A stretch of DNA of 64,000 nt from Chthoniobacterales bacterium (GCA_036524675.1 DATDBU010000108.1:4297-68296); one strand, 5' to 3'; shown: positions 6,249 through 64,000, counted from the first letter of the stretch. The notes: generated by a model from the letters alone, not told the origin. A program made the numbers and translations.

Positions 6249-7133
6249 ATGAAGCGTTTTGCGCCTGCCAAAATCAATCTTTCTCTCGAAGTGCTCGGAA
6301 AGCGCCCGGATGGATTTCACGATCTGCGGAGCCTGTTTTGCCCTATTTCATTGGTCGACGAGTTGGATTTTGAAAGAGCCACGTGTTTCGAGTTTTCGTG
6401 TTCCGATCCGTCGATTCCGAGGGATGAGAGAAATCTGGTTGTCAAAGCGGCGAAGTGGTTTGGCGGCGGTGTATTGCCGAAAGTGCGTGTGCATTTGGAG
6501 AAACGCATTCCCCATAGCGCGGGTTTAGGCGGCGGAAGTAGTGACGCCGCGACGACGCTACTGGCATTGAATGAGCTTGCGTCGGAGCCGAAGTCTTTTG
6601 GGGAATTATCCGAGATTGCGGCGTCGCTGGGATCGGACGTGCCATTTTTTTTGCATGAGTCACCAGCCTGGTGTGAGGGAAGGGGAGAACGGGTTGCTCC
6701 TGCGAGACTGGAGAACACGTTTGTGGTGCTCCTTTTCAAACCGGGATTCGGCGTCCCAACTCCCTGGGCCTACAAAAATCTCGCCGCAAGCCGGGAGTTG
6801 CCCAGTATTCCTTATGCGCGGCAGCAGACCGTCGCCGGCAGCTTGGTAAATGATTTGGAGCGTCCTGTTTTTGAGAAATACGTACTGCTTGGGTTGGTGA
6901 AGAAATGGCTGCTCGATCAACCCGAAACGCTCGGCGCGCTGATGTCAGGATCGGGCGCAACCATGTTTGCCATTGCCAGCAAGCACGCAGATGCGACGGC
7001 GCTGCGTGAACGGCTGCTGATGGAGGTTGGCGCTGACAATTGGACGTGGGTGGGAAGCGTAATGCCTTTTCCACTGACCGACCTGCGCCAAGGTAAAAGC
7101 CGGTCTTTTTCGCTGGAGAACAGGACAAAATAA
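6249..7133 (+). CDS. ispE: 4-diphosphocytidyl-2-C-methyl-D-erythritol kinase
   Basis: 'MKRFAPAKINLSLEVLGKRPDGFHDL' and the GHMP kinase motif 'IPHSAGLGGGSSDAA'. The 5' part of ORF 5622..7133 is antisense to pyrF and is not counted. Confidence 0.85.
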   Translation: MKRFAPAKINLSLEVLGKRPDGFHDLRSLFCPISLVDELDFERATCFEFSCSDPSIPRDERNLVVKAAKWFGGGVLPKVRVHLEKRIPHSAGLGGGSSDAATTLLALNELASEPKSFGELSEIAASLGSDVPFFLHESPAWCEGRGERVAPARLENTFVVLLFKPGFGVPTPWAYKNLAASRELPSIPYARQQTVAGSLVNDLERPVFEKYVLLGLVKKWLLDQPETLGALMSGSGATMFAIASKHADATALRERLLMEVGADNWTWVGSVMPFPLTDLRQGKSRSFSLENRTK

Positions 7134-7194
7134 GGCCACTTTTTGGCAAGTCACGCGCCTGTTGGAAACTACGGGCGGAATGACGGTATAGATT

Positions 7195-7692
7195 ATGAGC
7201 ATCCCCCCGCCTGACTACTCCTCTTTTCACATCGAGGACTGCGAAGACGTTATCGGCCTGGTAAAAACCCTCGTCGATGGCCGCCATCCCGGAATTCTTG
7301 GCACCGTGGATAAGGATGGAAAACCCCATCTGCGCTGGATGGCGACGTTTTCCTTTTCCGAATTCCCTGTTTTTCACGCACTGACGCATCCCCAGAGCGA
7401 AAAGGTGGCGCAGATTTGGGAAAATCCCAACGTCGATTGGATGTTTTCCAACGAAGACCTGAGTCTCGTTGTTAATCTCTCCGGCAAAGCCCGCGTGCTC
7501 ACCGACACTCCATCGCTAAAACGGATCTGGGCCAAGATCGACGACAAGTCACACGCTTATTTTCTCAACCAATACGCAAAAGGTGCAGGTTTCGTGGCGA
7601 TCGAGACGGTCGTGAAAGCCGTCCGGTGCACCTCGCCCCGTGACGACCTGCGTTTCGACCTGGAAACGGCCGAGCTCGCGCGCGCACGCTGA
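7195..7692 (+). CDS. Pyridoxamine 5'-phosphate oxidase-like / general stress protein 26-like FMN-binding protein
   Basis: 165 aa. 'GILGTVDKDGKPHLRWM' and the overall pattern resemble the split-barrel PNPOx family; weak recognition only. Confidence 0.5.
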   Translation: MSIPPPDYSSFHIEDCEDVIGLVKTLVDGRHPGILGTVDKDGKPHLRWMATFSFSEFPVFHALTHPQSEKVAQIWENPNVDWMFSNEDLSLVVNLSGKARVLTDTPSLKRIWAKIDDKSHAYFLNQYAKGAGFVAIETVVKAVRCTSPRDDLRFDLETAELARAR

Positions 7693-7967
7693 GGAAAGAC
7701 GCTACCGGGTCGATGACCCCGGCTACAGAGAGAGGGCGCTGTAATCGGCCTCCCGTGAGGCAGGCCTCCGCACTTTCCGGTCTGAGTTTCGAACACGGCT
7801 TAGGGAAATTCCCTAGTCGCCTGCACTTGATTCCTAGTTGCGTTGGTCCATTCCTCCGATTGTGGCAGCGCGGCGAGAAGCCTAGTTTGAATGCAGGAAA
7901 ACGCCAGTTGCCGCCCTGAGTCGAATCCCGTTTTCTCTCCCTATTTCCACCTCGGCAACTAGGGAGT

Positions 7968-8873
7968 TTGTCCCGGACGAAGACTATGAGCAACTCCAAT
8001 ACCCAGTTCATCGCGATGCTGTCGGAATCGCAGATTTACAAGGACTACGAACGCGCCTTCAGCGAGACCACCGGCTTGCCGCTCAACCTTCGACCCATTG
8101 AACATTGGAAGCTGGCGCATCGAGGCAGAAAACATGAGAGCCCCTTCTGCGCGCTTATGGCCCGTTCCAACAAGAGCTGCGCAGCCTGCCTGAGGATCCA
8201 GCAAGAAATTTCCAATCCCACCTCGCATGAAACACAGTCGGCAATATGTTTTGCGGGCCTTTGCGAGACCAGCGTGCCTTTGCGGGTCGGCGAAAATCTT
8301 GTCGGCTTTCTCCAGGTCGGAGAAGTTAGGTTTCGTGCTCCGGACAAGGGCGGTTTTGGCAAAATCGCCGAACAACTGCGCGAATGGGGATCCAGCGTTG
8401 ATCTTACGGAGGCCGAAGGCGCATGGCGCCGCACGCGGACGATTTCAAAGGGCCAGTATGATCAGATCGTCCGTCTCCTGGAAATTTTTGCACAACATCT
8501 CGCGCTTGTGGCCAATCAGCTCTTGATACGCCAGGAAAGGGCGGAACCCCCTGCGATCACCCGGGCCCGGCAGTTTATCGAGGCGCATTATGCTGAGGAA
8601 CTTCCGCTGCAGAAGGTTGCCAGGGCAGTTAACATGAGCAGCTTCTATTTTTGCAAGGTGTTCCGCAAAGTAACGGGTCTTACCTTTACGGACTACCTTT
8701 CACGAGTGCGTGTGGAAAAAGCAAAAAAACTGCTGTTGAATCCGAATGCGCGTGTTAGCGAAATTGCTTTTGATTCCGGTTTTGCCTCAATCACAAACTT
8801 CAACCGGACATTCAAACATTTCGTCGGTCATTCTCCCACCGACTATCGCGAGACGTTGCCAAGTGCAGCCTGA
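7968..8873 (+). CDS. AraC-family transcriptional regulator with PocR-like N-terminal sensor domain
   Basis: C-terminal AraC HTH ('MSSFYFCKVFRKVTGLTFTDYL...IAFDSGFASITNFNRTFK'). The N-terminus has the Cys-containing PocR-like stretch 'FCALMARSNKSCAACL'. Confidence 0.8.
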   Translation: MSRTKTMSNSNTQFIAMLSESQIYKDYERAFSETTGLPLNLRPIEHWKLAHRGRKHESPFCALMARSNKSCAACLRIQQEISNPTSHETQSAICFAGLCETSVPLRVGENLVGFLQVGEVRFRAPDKGGFGKIAEQLREWGSSVDLTEAEGAWRRTRTISKGQYDQIVRLLEIFAQHLALVANQLLIRQERAEPPAITRARQFIEAHYAEELPLQKVARAVNMSSFYFCKVFRKVTGLTFTDYLSRVRVEKAKKLLLNPNARVSEIAFDSGFASITNFNRTFKHFVGHSPTDYRETLPSAA

Positions 8874-59264: not shown

Positions 59265-59939
59265 TTACGCCCAGAGATTGCGGTCCAGAGTGCGATATTG
59301 GATGGCCTCGCCGAGGTGTTCGACCGTGATGTGATCGCTACCGGCAAGATCTGCGATGGTGCGGGAGACTTTGAGGATGCGGTCGTAGGCGCGGGCGCTT
59401 AGATGGAGGCTGGACATGGCCATGTGAAGCAGCTCCGAAGCGTCTTCGCCAAGCTGACAATGCGATTTGATCTGGCGGGACGTCATTCGGGCATTACACG
59501 TGATGTGTTTGGCGGCGCCTGCGAAACGCTTTTTTTGAAGGGATCGGGCCCGTTCGATACGTTCGCGGATCGACGTGGAGGGCTCGGCGGATTCGCGGCT
59601 GCTCAGTTCTTTGAATTCGACTGCAGGGACTTCGATGTGGATGTCGATTCGGTCGAGGAGCGGCCCGGAAATGCGCTGGCGGTAGCGTTCCACCTGCCCG
59701 GGCGCGCAGCGGCAATCGCGTTTCGGATCGCCGAAATAGCCGCACGGACACGGATTCATGGCTGCGACCAGCATAAAACCGGCGGGGAACGTCATGGAAC
59801 CGGCGGCGCGTGAAATCGTGACTCGCCCGTCCTCGAGCGGCTGTCGCAAGACTTCCAGCGTAGAGCGTTTGAACTCCGGCAATTCGTCAAGGAATAAAAC
59901 ACCGTTATGCGCCAGGCTGACTTCCCCCGGAGTCGGATT
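59265..59939 (-). pseudogene. comM: 3' fragment of comM/yifB (Mg-chelatase-like AAA+ competence protein), truncated by transposon insertion
   Basis: Reads '..[68 protein letters not shown]...' to a normal C-terminus. The N-terminal ~half (Lon-like domain, Walker A) is absent, and homology stops at ~59939-59945 where the transposon end begins. Confidence 0.85.
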
Positions 59940-60092
59940 TGTAGAGCTGTGACTTTTTGAAATTTCTGCGACATTTCTCTTGTAAGCTCCCAGGTAAATA
60001 TGTGATCTCTTTGCAAAAATTTTTGCGACGCAATTTCATACAATAACTGCGACGGCGATTGAAATGAACGTGAATAACTGCGACGGCGTTAG
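59940..60092 (+). repeat. Transposon end with putative TnsB-binding repeats
   Basis: 'TGTAGAGCTGTGAC' terminus. TGCGAC cores at 59967-72, 60024-29, 60048-53 and 60079-84. The last two sit in the near-identical 'AATAACTGCGACGGCG'; the terminal CTGTGAC (59947-53) is a variant. Confidence 0.7.
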
Positions 60093-60765
60093 GCCTCATC
60101 AAACCCGCAAAATCCGCCCTACCCGGCGGAGTGTTTCGGGCATCTACGCATTTCGCGGAGAGACAGCTATTCCTTTCGAATCAACGCTCGAACGAGATTT
60201 TTTACTCAAGAAGGAATTCAGTCGCCACGTTCTGACTGTCATCCCTCAACCCGTTCAGATTCCGTTCATTGCATCCAACGAACGCGCTTACACATACACC
60301 CCGGATTTTCTTGTTTATTATCGGCTGCCGCTTGACGCGCGATACGGAGACTATCCCAAGCCTCTTCTGGTTGAAGTAAAACCTCGTGCCGAGATTCGGA
60401 AACATTGGCGGGACTGGAAGTCGAAGTTTCGCGCCGCCCTCCATTACGCCAAAAAACAGGGATGGGATTACAGGATACATGACGAGGTCCGAATCCGGGA
60501 TCAAATGCTGAACAACATACGGTTCCTTGAACGCTACAAGCGAATGCAATTTCCCGCTGAAGAGACGCGTTGGGTCCTGGACAACGTACGGAGAATGGGA
60601 GGTGCCCCATTTCATTATATCCTCGCCCGGCATTTCATGGGTAGTTACCGGGGCGAAGGCATTTCGCATATCTGGTATCTCCTTGCGACGGGGCAGTTGG
60701 AATGCGACATCACACGACCATTAGGCGACGACACTGAGTTTTGGGTCCCGAACAATGAGCTCTAA
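60064..60765 (+). CDS. tnsA: TnsA-like transposition endonuclease
   Basis: Restriction-endonuclease-like catalytic pattern 'FESTLERDF' ... 'YTPDFLVYY' ... 'LLVEVKP' (E-D-K), then a C-terminal winged-helix-like region. Confidence 0.8.
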   Translation: MNVNNCDGVRPHQTRKIRPTRRSVSGIYAFRGETAIPFESTLERDFLLKKEFSRHVLTVIPQPVQIPFIASNERAYTYTPDFLVYYRLPLDARYGDYPKPLLVEVKPRAEIRKHWRDWKSKFRAALHYAKKQGWDYRIHDEVRIRDQMLNNIRFLERYKRMQFPAEETRWVLDNVRRMGGAPFHYILARHFMGSYRGEGISHIWYLLATGQLECDITRPLGDDTEFWVPNNEL

Positions 60766-62698
60766 CATTGAGAATGACGAGGACGTCGTAATTCCGAATG
60801 AAAGCTACGAACCCGTACGGGCACGTGTTGACATTCAGATTGACGGTCTAGTTGGATTCAATGGAAAGGTGTACCGCATTTCACAGGTGTTGGATTTCGA
60901 TACCGTAATTGGTGTGGAGGTTGAGAGCGGGCGAAGTGCCCCGTTGCGGATCGGAGAACTCCGCCCTATCGGTCGTGTCGATGAGGGTTCCATGCGGGAC
61001 GTCGCAGATATTGCCGATGCCGACTGGCGGGTGGCAGAACAACGCTTTGCCGCGATTAAACCGCTGATCTGTATGGTTGGGGCAGGACGAGTGGAAGTCG
61101 AAGAAAGGGCCTGTGAGGTGGGAGTAAATGCTGCTACGTTATACCGCTGGTTGAAGCGTTATAGAGCTTATGGAGAAGTAGCGGCCCTTATCCCTCTAAA
61201 ACGTGGCTGGAAAGAGGGAAGAAGTCGAATTCCGCCGTTTGCTGAACAGGTCATCGAGGAGACCATTAAGAAGTTTTACCTGACCGCACAGCGCCCGACT
61301 GCTCAGAAAACAGTGACGGAAGTCTTGCGGCAATGTCACCAAAGAGGAATCGAGGCGCCCCATCCAAGCACCATTCGTGCGAGGCTAACAAAGATAACGG
61401 AAAAGCAACGTTTGCGGGGACGGGGATTCAAAGAGAAAGCCAAGAACAAGTTTCTGCCGGCTTCAGGCAAAATGCCGAATGTCGATTTTCCCTTGGCTAT
61501 GGTTCAGATAGATCATACCCCGGCGGACATCATTCTTGTGGACGACCTGCATCGCAGACCGATCGGACGCCCCTGGATCACCCTCTCGATGGACGTTTAC
61601 AGCCGAATGGTCACGGGATACTATCTTTCGTTCGACCCGCCATCAGAGACATCGGTGGCGATGTGCGTTTCGCATTCCATTTTGCCGAAAGAGGAATGGC
61701 TGCTGCTGCATAAAGTGGATGCGCAATGGCCCGTTTGGGGGCTTCCACGAACTATTCACGTCGACAATGGCGCTGACTTTCGTTCCAACAATTTTCAGAA
61801 GTCCTGCTTGATGTACGGCATTAACCTGGAGTTTCGCCCCGTCAGACAACCTCGCTACGGAGGACACATTGAGCGTGTGCTTGGCACATTGCTTCGAGAG
61901 ATCCATGATTTACCTGGCACAACTTTTTCGTCCGTCAGGGACAGGGACGGCTACAATTCCGAAAAGGAAGCGGCGATGACGAAATCAGAGTTCGAAACGT
62001 GGTTGGTGACTTTGATTTGCAAAGTATATCACCAACGGCTCCACAGCGGCATTGGCATGTCTCCCCTGCGGAAGTGGGAAATCGGAATCTTTGGAAATAA
62101 TGAAGTTCAAGGGTGCGGTATCCCCGCGCGGATCACAGACCGTCACGCTGTAATGCTGGATTTCCTGCCTTCGTTTCAACGCACGGTTCAGACGTTCGGA
62201 GTAACTATCGATGGCATGACGTATTATGCTGAGGCGCTGCGTCCATGGATTGGTGCGGACGACCCGGACAATCCCGGTCGCAAGAGGGAATTCGTCTTCC
62301 GCCGAGATCCTAGAGACATTAGCTCCATTTGGTTTCGCGATCCGGAGCTTAAGCAGTATTTCAAAGTTCCGTTCAGCGATCAATCGCTGCCCTCGATGAG
62401 CATATGGGAATACCAGCAGGCCCGCGAAATGCTTAAACGCGAGGGTGCCAAAAGCGTTAACGAGCACCAGGTTTTTCATGCTATCACAGAACTGCGGAAG
62501 CGGGTCGATGAGGCGAAGGAAAAAACGAAAAAAGCCCGGCGTTTGAGTCAGCGTCGTAAAGAGCACGAGAAGCGTCCCTCTCCAGCGGCACCGTTACCTC
62601 CGCATCAGCCTCAGCCCTCGATGCCCCCTTTAATTTTCCAAACCCCTAGCGGCACCTTGATAGAAGGTCATATTGATTCGTCCGACGACATTGGTTGA
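60755..62698 (+). CDS. tnsB: TnsB-like DDE (Mu/rve-type) transposase
   Basis: HTH 'AATLYRWLKRY'. DDE triad context 'VQIDHTPADI', 'IHVDNGADFRS', 'GGHIERVLGTL'. Overlaps tnsA by 11 nt. Confidence 0.9.
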   Translation: MSSNIENDEDVVIPNESYEPVRARVDIQIDGLVGFNGKVYRISQVLDFDTVIGVEVESGRSAPLRIGELRPIGRVDEGSMRDVADIADADWRVAEQRFAAIKPLICMVGAGRVEVEERACEVGVNAATLYRWLKRYRAYGEVAALIPLKRGWKEGRSRIPPFAEQVIEETIKKFYLTAQRPTAQKTVTEVLRQCHQRGIEAPHPSTIRARLTKITEKQRLRGRGFKEKAKNKFLPASGKMPNVDFPLAMVQIDHTPADIILVDDLHRRPIGRPWITLSMDVYSRMVTGYYLSFDPPSETSVAMCVSHSILPKEEWLLLHKVDAQWPVWGLPRTIHVDNGADFRSNNFQKSCLMYGINLEFRPVRQPRYGGHIERVLGTLLREIHDLPGTTFSSVRDRDGYNSEKEAAMTKSEFETWLVTLICKVYHQRLHSGIGMSPLRKWEIGIFGNNEVQGCGIPARITDRHAVMLDFLPSFQRTVQTFGVTIDGMTYYAEALRPWIGADDPDNPGRKREFVFRRDPRDISSIWFRDPELKQYFKVPFSDQSLPSMSIWEYQQAREMLKREGAKSVNEHQVFHAITELRKRVDEAKEKTKKARRLSQRRKEHEKRPSPAAPLPPHQPQPSMPPLIFQTPSGTLIEGHIDSSDDIG

Positions 62699-62699
62699 C

Positions 62700-63590
62700 A
62701 TGAATGGTTACGAACATATTCACCCGGAGTTCAGGCATATCATGGGAATGTCCGAAAAGGATCGGGTCGGTTTTCTGGATCAACCCCGCTGGATCGGGTA
62801 CAAAGTTGCTCGGCAAATCTTGGATACGTTGCAAGGATTGATGCATAAGCCGGTCCGTCCGCGCATGCCCAATCTCCTGATCGTCGGCGATCCGAACAAT
62901 GGAAAGACTACTATTATTCGTCGTTTTCGCGACTTGTGCGGTCAGGGCTACGTCAATGAAGATTCAGAACCGGTCAAACCCATCATTCTTGCAGAAGCTC
63001 CGCCAAGCGCGGACGAGAAGGGATTGTATATATCAATCCTAGAACGATTCTTCACACCTTACAGGGCCAGCGATCCGGCTGCCAAGCTTCGTTATCAAAC
63101 CATTCATCTTTTGCGGATGTGCCATGTCCGCATTTTAGTTATCGACGAGTTCCACTCTCTATTGACAGGTCCGCCGATCAAACAGCGGGAAGTCATGAAC
63201 ACCATCAAACTTCTGAGCAACGAACTCGCGATCCCAATCGTCGGCGTCGGAAAAAGGGAGGCTGTTCGAGTGCTTCACACTGATGAGCAGCATGCTAGCC
63301 GCTTTGATGTTATGCCACTTCCATTGTGGGAATTGAATCCTGATTTTCAACGACTGCTGGCAGGATTCGAGAAGGTTTTACCGCTCAAGAAACCTTCGGA
63401 ACTGCATTCGCCTGCAAATGCCACTCTGCTCCATGCAATCTCGGAAGGGAACCTAGGTAATTTGCATCGCCTTTTGGTCGAATGTACTGCGGAAGCGATC
63501 ATGAGCGGCAAAGAACAAGTCGACAAGAGCATCATCGAAAGCAAGAGATGGCTACGTCCCACTCGTGGAATACGGGAGCTGGTCGGATAG
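62700..63590 (+). CDS. tnsC: TnsC/TniB-like AAA+ transposition regulator (short, TniB-sized)
   Basis: Walker A 'GDPNNGKTT' and Walker B 'ILVIDEFHSLL'. The ATG lies 1 nt after the tnsB stop (TGACATG); an upstream in-frame start at 62673 is also possible. Confidence 0.85.
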   Translation: MNGYEHIHPEFRHIMGMSEKDRVGFLDQPRWIGYKVARQILDTLQGLMHKPVRPRMPNLLIVGDPNNGKTTIIRRFRDLCGQGYVNEDSEPVKPIILAEAPPSADEKGLYISILERFFTPYRASDPAAKLRYQTIHLLRMCHVRILVIDEFHSLLTGPPIKQREVMNTIKLLSNELAIPIVGVGKREAVRVLHTDEQHASRFDVMPLPLWELNPDFQRLLAGFEKVLPLKKPSELHSPANATLLHAISEGNLGNLHRLLVECTAEAIMSGKEQVDKSIIESKRWLRPTRGIRELVG

Positions 63591-64000
63591 CGCCCCGGTG
63601 GGCGGTTGCGGTTCCGATACTCCCAAATGAAATAGTTTCATCGTGGCTCGTGAGAGCTGCCCTTACGCAAGGCTGCGATCCGCTCGCCCTGACGGGGAAG
63701 CTTTGGCCGGGATGGAGATTGTGGACGCTCGACGCCGATCGAAGACTTGGTCCTGAACGGCTCGATCCCCTGGTCCAGTGTTCTGGTATCGAGCGCGCAG
63801 TCTTTTTGGCGTCCACGCTCGATCCCGTAGCCCGTCAAATCTATGGAGGGATCCCGCCCGAATGTGGCGTTTGGCAATGGATTCTGGCTTTGGGATCGCG
63901 AAACACTAAGCGTCGAGGTGGGATGCAATGTTGTTTAGCGTGCCTAAATACGGACAAAACGCCATATTTTCGTAAAAATTGGCGTTTTGCCTGGCATACC
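63548..64000 (+). CDS. tniQ: TniQ-family (TnsD-like) target-selection protein, 5' partial (runs off the window)
   Basis: Not in the ORF track because it has no stop. My translation from ATG 63548 is 'MATSHSWNTGAGRIAPRWAVAVPILPNEIVSSWLVRAALTQGCDPLALTGKLW...RRGGMQCCLACLNTDKTPYFRKNWRFAWHT', which shows the TniQ N-terminal motif and a CxxC zinc motif. Confidence 0.8.
   Translation, partial: MATSHSWNTGAGRIAPRWAVAVPILPNEIVSSWLVRAALTQGCDPLALTGKLWPGWRLWTLDADRRLGPERLDPLVQCSGIERAVFLASTLDPVARQIYGGIPPECGVWQWILALGSRNTKRRGGMQCCLACLNTDKTPYFRKNWRFAWHT

Follow-up and report, generated by a model that had tools for sequence, protein, structure and literature searches.

A probable Tn6022-family transposon at the customary comM site of a verrucomicrobial chromosome

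The end of a 64,000-nucleotide stretch of DNA from a Chthoniobacterales bacterium (GCA_036524675.1 DATDBU010000108.1:4297-68296; we call this whole stretch the window) contains, at positions 59,265 to 64,000, the 3' half of comM (or yifB) and, beside it, consecutive open reading frames (ORFs) for the core proteins of a Tn7-like transposon. It is very probable that the window ends inside a transposon of the Tn6022 family that is inserted in comM of a Chthoniobacterales (Verrucomicrobiota) chromosome. The features are listed below. The last of them lies outside the window, on a contig (L001) that is described further on.

59265..59947, minus strand: 3' fragment of comM/yifB, with about 227 codons before its stop (59265-59267) (TIGR00368, PF01078, PF13335 and codon comparison)
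59883..59900, minus strand: ComM Walker B codons (VLFLDE), read from the sequence; by homology, the putative core of the TnsF attachment site
59943..59947, no strand: predicted copy of the 5-bp target-site duplication, AGAGC (GCTCT in comM sense), from the duplications of relatives
59948..60088, plus strand: tnsA-proximal ("right") transposon end, with a terminal 5'-TGT (59948-59950) and four AAWWWYTGCGAC repeats
60064..60765, plus strand: tnsA, endonuclease subunit of 233 amino acids (aa) (PF08722, E 1.9e-14; PF08721, E 9e-9; NF033179, TnsA-like)
60755..62698, plus strand: tnsB, DDE transposase of 647 aa (motifs VQIDHTP, IHVDNGADF and GGHIER; Pfam rve, Mu-transpos_C and helix-turn-helix)
62673..63590, plus strand: tnsC, short TniB-type AAA+ ATPase (PF05621 TniB, E 3.3e-70)
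63548..64000, plus strand: 5' part of tniQ, the first 150 codons, running off the window (PF06527)
L001 4758-6206 (about 64675-66123 in window-equivalent positions): tnsF, 482 aa, overlapping the 3' end of tniQ

An earlier reading of the window from its sequence alone (the sequence-only reading) had recognized a Tn7-type core of TnsA, TnsB, a TniB-like TnsC and TniQ. The Pfam domains bear this out: tnsA, a DDE tnsB, an AAA+ tnsC and a gene for a TniQ-domain protein follow one another as plus-strand ORFs, and the ORFs are intact, with conserved catalytic motifs. TnsB is 43% identical to TnsB of A. baumannii Tn6022 (locus L003) over 594 aa (E 3e-180; the range across Acinetobacter is 41-43%). 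Its bit scores are 941-1019 against loci with a linked tnsF, 514 against A. baumannii Tn6022, about 333 against TniA of the Tn5053/Tn402 type, about 150 against transposases of the Tn552 type, and about 96 against Tn7-like TnsB. The distant matches have identities of 36% (Tn5053/Tn402-type TniA), 26% (a Tn552-type transposase) and about 24% (a tnsA-adjacent Tn7-like TnsB from a plasmid collection). TnsA shares the motifs FESTLERDF, YTPDFLV and LLVEVKP with TnsA of A. baumannii Tn6022. It has 68-71% identity to the TnsA proteins of related loci, and 40% to that of A. baumannii. A sequence search of the PDB with TnsA did not reach Tn7 TnsA, so its family membership rests on the Pfam models. TnsC starts at a TTG (62673, giving 305 aa) or at an ATG (62700, giving 296 aa, as called on the Logan contig described below). 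It has a Walker A motif (GDPNNGKT) and a Walker B motif (LVIDEF), matches VchTnsC and ShTnsC in the PDB (E ~1e-11), and is 83% identical to TnsC of a Gallionella locus (L006) and 50% identical to TnsC of Acinetobacter. The grouping of the core proteins with Tn6022 is supported by these identities and bit scores, that is, by pairwise scores.

To look beyond the window we relied on Logan contigs. The window's TnsB is encoded residue for residue on contigs of SRR25158257 and SRR25158260. The longer of these (L001, 11.9 kb) overlaps the window by 4,083 bp, 30 bp of comM among them, and matches it there at 100% identity. (In exact-protein look-ups, only TnsB was on record; TnsC read from the TTG start, enolase, and a 120-aa ORF beside comM had no match. 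The contig that holds the window has a listed length of 77,557 bp in the protein database.) On L001, tniQ is 378 aa long, and its 3' end is overlapped by an ORF of 482 aa that is rich in CxxC pairs. The encoded protein is 35% identical to Orf3/TnsF of A. baumannii Tn6022 (481 aa) over 468 aa (E 1e-97) and 33% identical to that of A. johnsonii, and its zinc-finger Cys pairs are invariant across 11 homologues. Judging by its sequence, it is TnsF, with a predicted N-terminal zinc-finger array and an apparently inactivated, tyrosine-recombinase-like C-terminal part. TnsF was described in these terms (N-terminal zinc fingers, with the remainder resembling an inactivated tyrosine recombinase) by Faure et al. 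2023 (PMC10293859), who defined the Tn6022 family by tnsA-tnsB-tnsC, a short tniQ (369 aa) and tnsF (498 aa). A tblastn search of a plasmid collection with the TnsF of L001 gave 51 Acinetobacter records over 96% of its length. One of these is actually an A. baumannii chromosome (L003), where the order is the comM 3' half (minus strand), tnsA, tnsB, tnsC (306 aa), tniQ (380 aa) and tnsF (481 aa). As the element has a TnsF homologue overlapping a short tniQ, and as all five of its proteins have collinear homologues in Tn6022, it is of the Tn6022 type. The sequence-only reading was thus right about kinship with the Tn6022/AbaR family of Acinetobacter.

The comM fragment is also as first described in that its frame runs intact from the stop at 59265 and comprises only half of the gene. 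On the minus strand, window 59268-59939 covers positions 285-499 of the 499 positions of TIGR00368 (E 2.7e-86) and matches PF01078 and PF13335 as well, with no frameshift or internal stop. A tblastn search with full-length ComM found no 5' half in the whole window. The nearest ComM proteins are 71-78% identical to the fragment, and one of them is named Verrucomicrobia.

The exact junction differs from the first description, which had comM ending at about 59939, the transposon starting at 59940 with TGTAGAGC as its terminus, and GGATT (59935-59939) as the flank to be duplicated. We compared the codons with the intact ComM genes of two contigs (L004 and L005) and with verrucomicrobial ComM proteins. 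The eight bases from 59940 to 59947 encode the Ser-Thr of a motif that is found in intact verrucomicrobial ComM proteins, and 59946-59947, where the comM fragment begins, are positions two and three of the second Gly codon in that motif. The boundary is at 59947/59948, which is 8 bp further in, and the element begins at 59948 with TGTGAC. In comM sense, with a slash at the insertion point, the junction in the window is AGT CAC A / GC TCT ACA AAT CCG ACT CCG GGG GAA, and the junction in A. baumannii is AAT GAC A / GC GGT TCA CAC CCT AAA CCG GGT GAA. In the window, in A. baumannii, and in A. johnsonii, the terminal ACA is exactly 20 nucleotides (nt) upstream of the G-E codons of "PGE." The insertion codon had been suggested as a point of comparison with Acinetobacter, and relative to the Walker B region the nucleotide is the same.

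We checked this spacing among 139 TnsF-linked loci, 59 of them from one genome per species and 80 from metagenomes (both found by scans with TnsF alignments). In 72 of the 78 TnsF-linked comM junctions, the ACA is followed by the G-E codons at exactly this spacing of 20 nt, and 59948 is the only position in the window that fits this rule, so we place the end there. In all of the TnsF-linked comM junctions that we compared, the tnsA end faces the comM 3' half. The window element likewise lies just upstream of the Walker B codons, in this fixed orientation and position. The junctions at L084, L087, L074/L125, L030 and L050 are one base off the 20-nt rule or have termini other than ACA (TTAGA or GACAG); they may be variant ends, decayed elements, or cases in which the insertion point slipped. 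Four relatives for which both ends are available have the 5 bp beside ACA/TGT duplicated (L023, GCGGC; L044, GGCGC; L051, GCGGG; and L053, GAGGT), and by analogy the expected duplication in the window is AGAGC rather than GGATT. Among these four is A. johnsonii CIP 64.6, and A. johnsonii is the species whose Tn6022 element was reconstituted experimentally (PMC10293859).

Between GG and PGE, the ComM of this host is longer by one codon than that of Acinetobacter, yet on the Walker B side the insertion keeps its distance in nucleotides (59 nt to the start of the Asp codon). This fits a position that is measured from the TnsF site. The sequence at the junction also bears on whether the window could be a chimera, in which the contig of a proteobacterial transposon was fused with a verrucomicrobial one at the Walker B sequence of comM, which is nearly universal. 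A metagenome assembly is the probable source of the window, the Walker B region is strongly conserved from phylum to phylum, and the Logan contig breaks only 30 bp outside of the transposon end. However, S-T-N-P-T-P, encoded by the 20 nt that separate the transposon end from the G-E codons, is a verrucomicrobial ComM motif, while proteobacterial hosts have GSxP(R/K)P. Host-specific sequence right up to the terminal ACA argues against chimeric assembly, and the same 30 bp of comM is attached to the end in the independently assembled Logan contig. We therefore give a chimera hardly any credence.

A few other peculiarities of comM came up. First, there are many short entries among the closest ComM homologues, which we considered as further interrupted comM genes. 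We rejected this because the sequences are continuous through GGS(T/A)NPTPGE, so these are truncated gene calls. Second, the verrucomicrobial-type comM at L005 9076-10690 (ENA ERZ25039488 contig_20826) is broken into two ORFs where one frameshift falls in the Walker A region (PGSGKS read as PGSGQI). This is no insertion, and most likely an assembly error. Third, L004 8434-10675 (ENA ERZ25039565 contig_20276, 374 kb) has a full-length comM (509 aa) and, 37 bp past its stop, a second, diverged copy of the comM 3' end. This copy encodes 224 aa that are 88% identical and begins with TPTPGE, which is essentially at the Tn6022-type insertion site, and the DNA of the two copies is identical across the PGE and Walker B stretch. 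The duplicate looks like a footprint or remnant of a different comM-integrating element that carried a replacement 3' end, or it may be an assembly artefact.

On the transposon side of the junction, the AAWWWYTGCGAC repeat occurs in four same-strand copies within 125 nt (59960-59972, 60017-60029, 60041-60053 and 60072-60084), and by their sequence these appear to be of the TnsB-binding type. The whole window contains only 41 TGCGAC hexamers, counting both strands, so the cluster is not due to chance. (CTGCGAC has 7 matches in L001, against 1.85 expected.) The terminal sequence gtcgcaNNNaatttcNaaaagtcaca recurs in the relatives L009, L010 and L013 (as aaaagtcaca), and the termini of L010 (gtcgcattaatttcgaaaagtcaca) and of the window (gtcgcagaaatttcaaaaagtcaca) are nearly identical. 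The annotated ATG of tnsA (window 60064-60090 region) is 8 nt upstream of the fourth repeat (60072-84), so this repeat falls within the first codons of tnsA. Binding of TnsB there could repress the expression of tnsA, or the true start of tnsA could be further downstream.

Which protein chooses the target? TniQ and TnsD proteins are DNA-binding selectors in Tn7 and in several Tn7-like families, and tniQ is the only candidate that is visible inside the window. The sequence-only reading had named TniQ as the comM-targeting protein. If TniQ acts like TnsD and recognizes comM directly, then this specificity would be deeply conserved or would have evolved independently of Tn6022. We consider this very improbable. 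The 378-aa TniQ aligns end to end with the 380-aa TniQ of A. baumannii Tn6022 (29% identity over 361 aa, E 3e-53), with no extra DNA-binding extension, and the gene that overlaps its 3' end encodes a full-length homologue of TnsF, the selector of Tn6022 (PMC10293859, PMC11014353). In A. baumannii, TnsABC and TniQ without TnsF do not target comM, and the 481-aa Orf3/TnsF restores precise insertion (PMC11014353). Similarly, insertion into comM needs TnsF, TnsF binds TniQ, and deletion of TnsF abolishes transposition (PMC10293859). As for independent evolution of comM targeting, which the sequence-only reading had also raised, all five proteins are collinear homologues of those of Tn6022 and the insertion nucleotide is identical to that in Acinetobacter, which points to homologous machinery that was acquired across phyla.

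So, the selector is likely TnsF rather than TniQ, and TniQ is probably an adaptor between TnsF and TnsC rather than a selector of DNA. The published contact is between a basic helix at the C terminus of TniQ (K348/K361) and acidic residues near the C terminus of TnsF (E427/D476 of Aj TnsF). In the window element, TniQ ends in an Arg/Lys-rich helix and the TnsF positions aligned to the two acidic residues are E and D (the A. johnsonii numbering is approximate for both proteins). We also considered whether TniQ and TnsF had diverged unusually as an adaptation to a new phylum. We rejected this, as the ratio of TnsF identity to TnsB identity, at comparable TnsB identity, is 0.69 here and 0.72 ± 0.09 in 420 other pairs, which is normal for the family.

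From homology to the two Acinetobacter elements that have been reconstituted, we propose that TnsF, whose gene lies directly beyond the window, binds comM at the strongly conserved codons of Walker B; that the short TniQ bridges TnsF to the TniB-like AAA+ TnsC; and that TnsC recruits the heteromeric transposase of TnsA and TnsB. The element would insert in a single orientation, its tnsA end pointing to the Walker B side. The spacing would be constant as well, with the insertion point 20 nt upstream of the G-E codons (59 nt from the Asp codon of Walker B), and insertion would yield a 5-bp duplication. The AjTnsF and ZooTnsF sites are a conserved 10-bp stretch in the codons of the Walker B motif (PMC10293859), and Acinetobacter elements also use E. 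coli comM, at the same position (PMC10293859, PMC11014353). The split of comM would presumably inactivate ComM. ComM is a helicase that is used in natural transformation.

The host is verrucomicrobial, as had been suspected. SecA in the window has 95% identity to a protein under the name Chthoniobacterales bacterium, from a metagenome-assembled genome (MAG), and the next named matches are from Chthoniobacterales or Verrucomicrobiota. The closest ComM relatives agree. The element has a GC content of 51-52%, compared with 55-61% for the flank, and its core proteins are closest to those of elements in a Gallionella MAG, in a Burkholderiales MAG, and on a Methylobacter plasmid (71-75% identity for TnsB). 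The element is one of a subclade that occurs mainly in Beta- and Gammaproteobacteria, and judging from these sequence comparisons it most likely reached its host by horizontal transfer. The sequence-only reading had offered deep conservation as an explanation. This holds in the sense of a conserved target that is met by a horizontally spreading element, but not otherwise, as the element's nearest kin are proteobacterial. Among isolates, the closest relative is on a 349-kb plasmid of Methylobacter sp. YRD-M1 (NZ_CP091425.1; L149 19150-25400), with identities of 71-72% for TnsB, 81% for TnsC and 51% for TnsF. This copy lies among tra genes, outside of comM, and has TGTCATTTCCAGAAATAAATGCGAC as its end. 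The subclade therefore inserts into plasmids as well, even though a TnsE homologue cannot be detected from sequence, and a plasmid with tra genes is a plausible transfer vehicle. Other records from outside the Proteobacteria also have TnsF-type elements in comM (Candidatus Entotheonella and MAGs labelled Deltaproteobacteria), and a Riflebacteria MAG carries a TnsF homologue, on a contig that is too short to show a comM junction. Tn7-like elements in general had been reported before from five species of Verrucomicrobia (PMC8649781), and we found no verrucomicrobial example of the Tn6022/TnsF type among about 140 related loci or in the literature that we searched.

A Tn6022/TnsF element of proteobacterial origin may even be fully active in Verrucomicrobiota, with TnsF reading the Walker B codons despite the extra loop codon. 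We regard this as a real possibility, though we stop a little short of calling it probable. Several observations weigh against our main interpretation. First, tnsF is outside the window and is linked to it only by a contig from another dataset, albeit one that is identical over the overlap. Second, a tblastn search with A. baumannii TnsE found no TnsE homologue in the 12 kb available, in contrast to Acinetobacter Tn6022. Third, we recovered neither the distal end nor the 5' half of comM nor a second copy of the duplication, so this copy is only putatively complete and mobile. Fourth, verrucomicrobial ComM has the extra codon between GG and PGE, and recognition of this variant by TnsF is predicted only. 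Fifth, none of the roughly 140 other TnsF loci has a clearly verrucomicrobial comM, so activity in this phylum rests on a single insertion.

In Tn6022, TnsE (orf4), which serves in plasmid targeting, is encoded on the opposite strand. With the same query, TnsE homologues were found in Acinetobacter loci only, and in neither L001 nor the other loci. We treat the missing TnsE as a difference between subclades, because TnsE was dispensable for insertion into comM in both reconstitutions (PMC10293859, PMC11014353). Just past tnsF, where Acinetobacter Tn6022 has cargo and then tnsE, L001 has a 459-aa ORF on the minus strand (6954-8333) with no match in Pfam or PADLOC and no similarity to A. baumannii TnsE. 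The sequence after tnsF contains ORFs without a clear function, a protein of the Exo_endo_phos family and, at the contig end, a partial transposase gene of the insertion sequence (IS) IS66. Among the cargo ORFs, PADLOC found no match to a defence system and Pfam found the Exo_endo_phos domain only. The IS66-family gene (L001 10977-11906, or about 70894-71823 in window-equivalent positions; PF03050, E 5e-68) is inside the cargo or at its edge. As it coincides with the end of L001, IS66 is probably the repeat that broke the Logan assembly.

Extension toward the other end, which the sequence-only reading had suggested, reached IS66 without an inverted end before it (we searched L001 for inverted repeats and for the CTGCGAC motif), and without the comM 5' half or a second copy of the duplication. 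A scan of metagenomes with exact TnsF peptides of the window element had no match. The distal end would then lie further on, and we expect it as an inverted end with GTCGCAG and then AAAAAGTCACA, after which AGAGC and the 5' half of comM, in reverse complement, should come on the plus strand. Alternatively, the element could be a dead remnant or the scar of a rearrangement, with its distal end and the 5' half of comM lost by deletion or by an IS-mediated event. The failure to find the distal end in L001 and the IS66 transposase gene about 11 kb into the element, where the contig stops, would fit with this, and degraded Tn6022 subgroups are known in A. baumannii (PMC11014353). On the other hand, the five transposition genes are intact, with lengths typical of the family and conserved motifs; neither a frameshift nor a stop interrupts the comM 3' fragment; the junction is canonical to the base; and a break in the assembly at an IS is expected from a repeat and is no evidence of truncation. 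We consider a remnant to be unlikely, and retain the reading of an inserted Tn6022-family transposon.

The window element is an ordinary member of the Tn6022 family at the family's customary site in comM, and only its host is unusual. This case reveals no new mechanism and answers no open question. It does add a host from the Verrucomicrobiota (Chthoniobacterales) to a family whose comM targeting was worked out in Acinetobacter, and it is a natural example of the proposal by Faure et al. that the Walker B codons of comM anchor TnsF-guided elements across distant hosts. If the element is active in its host, then the insertion point would be measured purely from the Walker B side and comM would be a landing pad across phyla. 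The known host range of TnsF-guided insertion would be wider, and there would be a suggestion that losing ComM-dependent transformation matters in Chthoniobacterales. The case may be of some use for engineering broad-host insertion by TnsF and for annotating MAGs in which comM is split.

Among characterized systems, the closest is the backbone of Tn6022 and AbaR/AbGRI (AjTn6022 and A. baumannii Tn6022). The two share the order tnsA-tnsB-tnsC (TniB-like)-tniQ-tnsF, with tniQ and tnsF overlapping; the target comM, the orientation (tnsA end toward the Walker B half) and the insertion nucleotide; full-length homology of every protein; and, in relatives, a 5-bp duplication. They differ in that protein identity is only 29-50% (41-43% for TnsB and 33-35% for TnsF), the ends in Acinetobacter are TGTCAT rather than TGTGAC, and the hosts are Gammaproteobacteria rather than Verrucomicrobiota. 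Also, Acinetobacter Tn6022 has tnsE, which we did not detect in the 12 kb available for the window element, and the cargo of the window element has an Exo_endo_phos-family protein, ORFs without clear function and IS66 instead of resistance genes.

The closest relatives overall are uncharacterized TnsF-type elements in comM (L006 from Gallionella, and L036, L008 and L014, from Burkholderiales, Methylobacter/Methylomicrobium and MAGs labelled Deltaproteobacteria), together with the Methylobacter plasmid copy. The Gallionella element is 75% identical in TnsB, 83% in TnsC, 68% in TnsA, 46% in TniQ and 52% in TnsF. The chromosomal relatives share the architecture, the kind of terminus, and the comM junction with the window element, but the hosts in this group are mostly Proteobacteria.

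Tsy elements use a TnsF homologue to target the same Walker B region of comM. However, they lack TnsA, TnsB, TnsC and TniQ, they combine a YRec with a longer, active TnsF (catalytic mutant Y584F), and they insert in the opposite direction (PMC10293859). The window element has the full TnsA/B/C/TniQ core, and its TnsF is of the 480-aa class.

More distantly, Tn5053/Tn402 (TniABQ-R) and Tn7 (TnsABCDE) also have a DDE transposase (TnsB or TniA), an AAA+ protein (TnsC or TniB), a TniQ-domain protein and, at their ends, arrays of repeats that bind the transposase. The Tn5053/Tn402 family has no TnsA and targets res sites, and its TniA is only 36% identical to the window's TnsB (over residues 83-591). 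Tn7 uses TnsD at glmS, and TnsE, and the Tn7-like, tnsA-adjacent TnsB in the plasmid collection is about 24% identical to the TnsB of the window.

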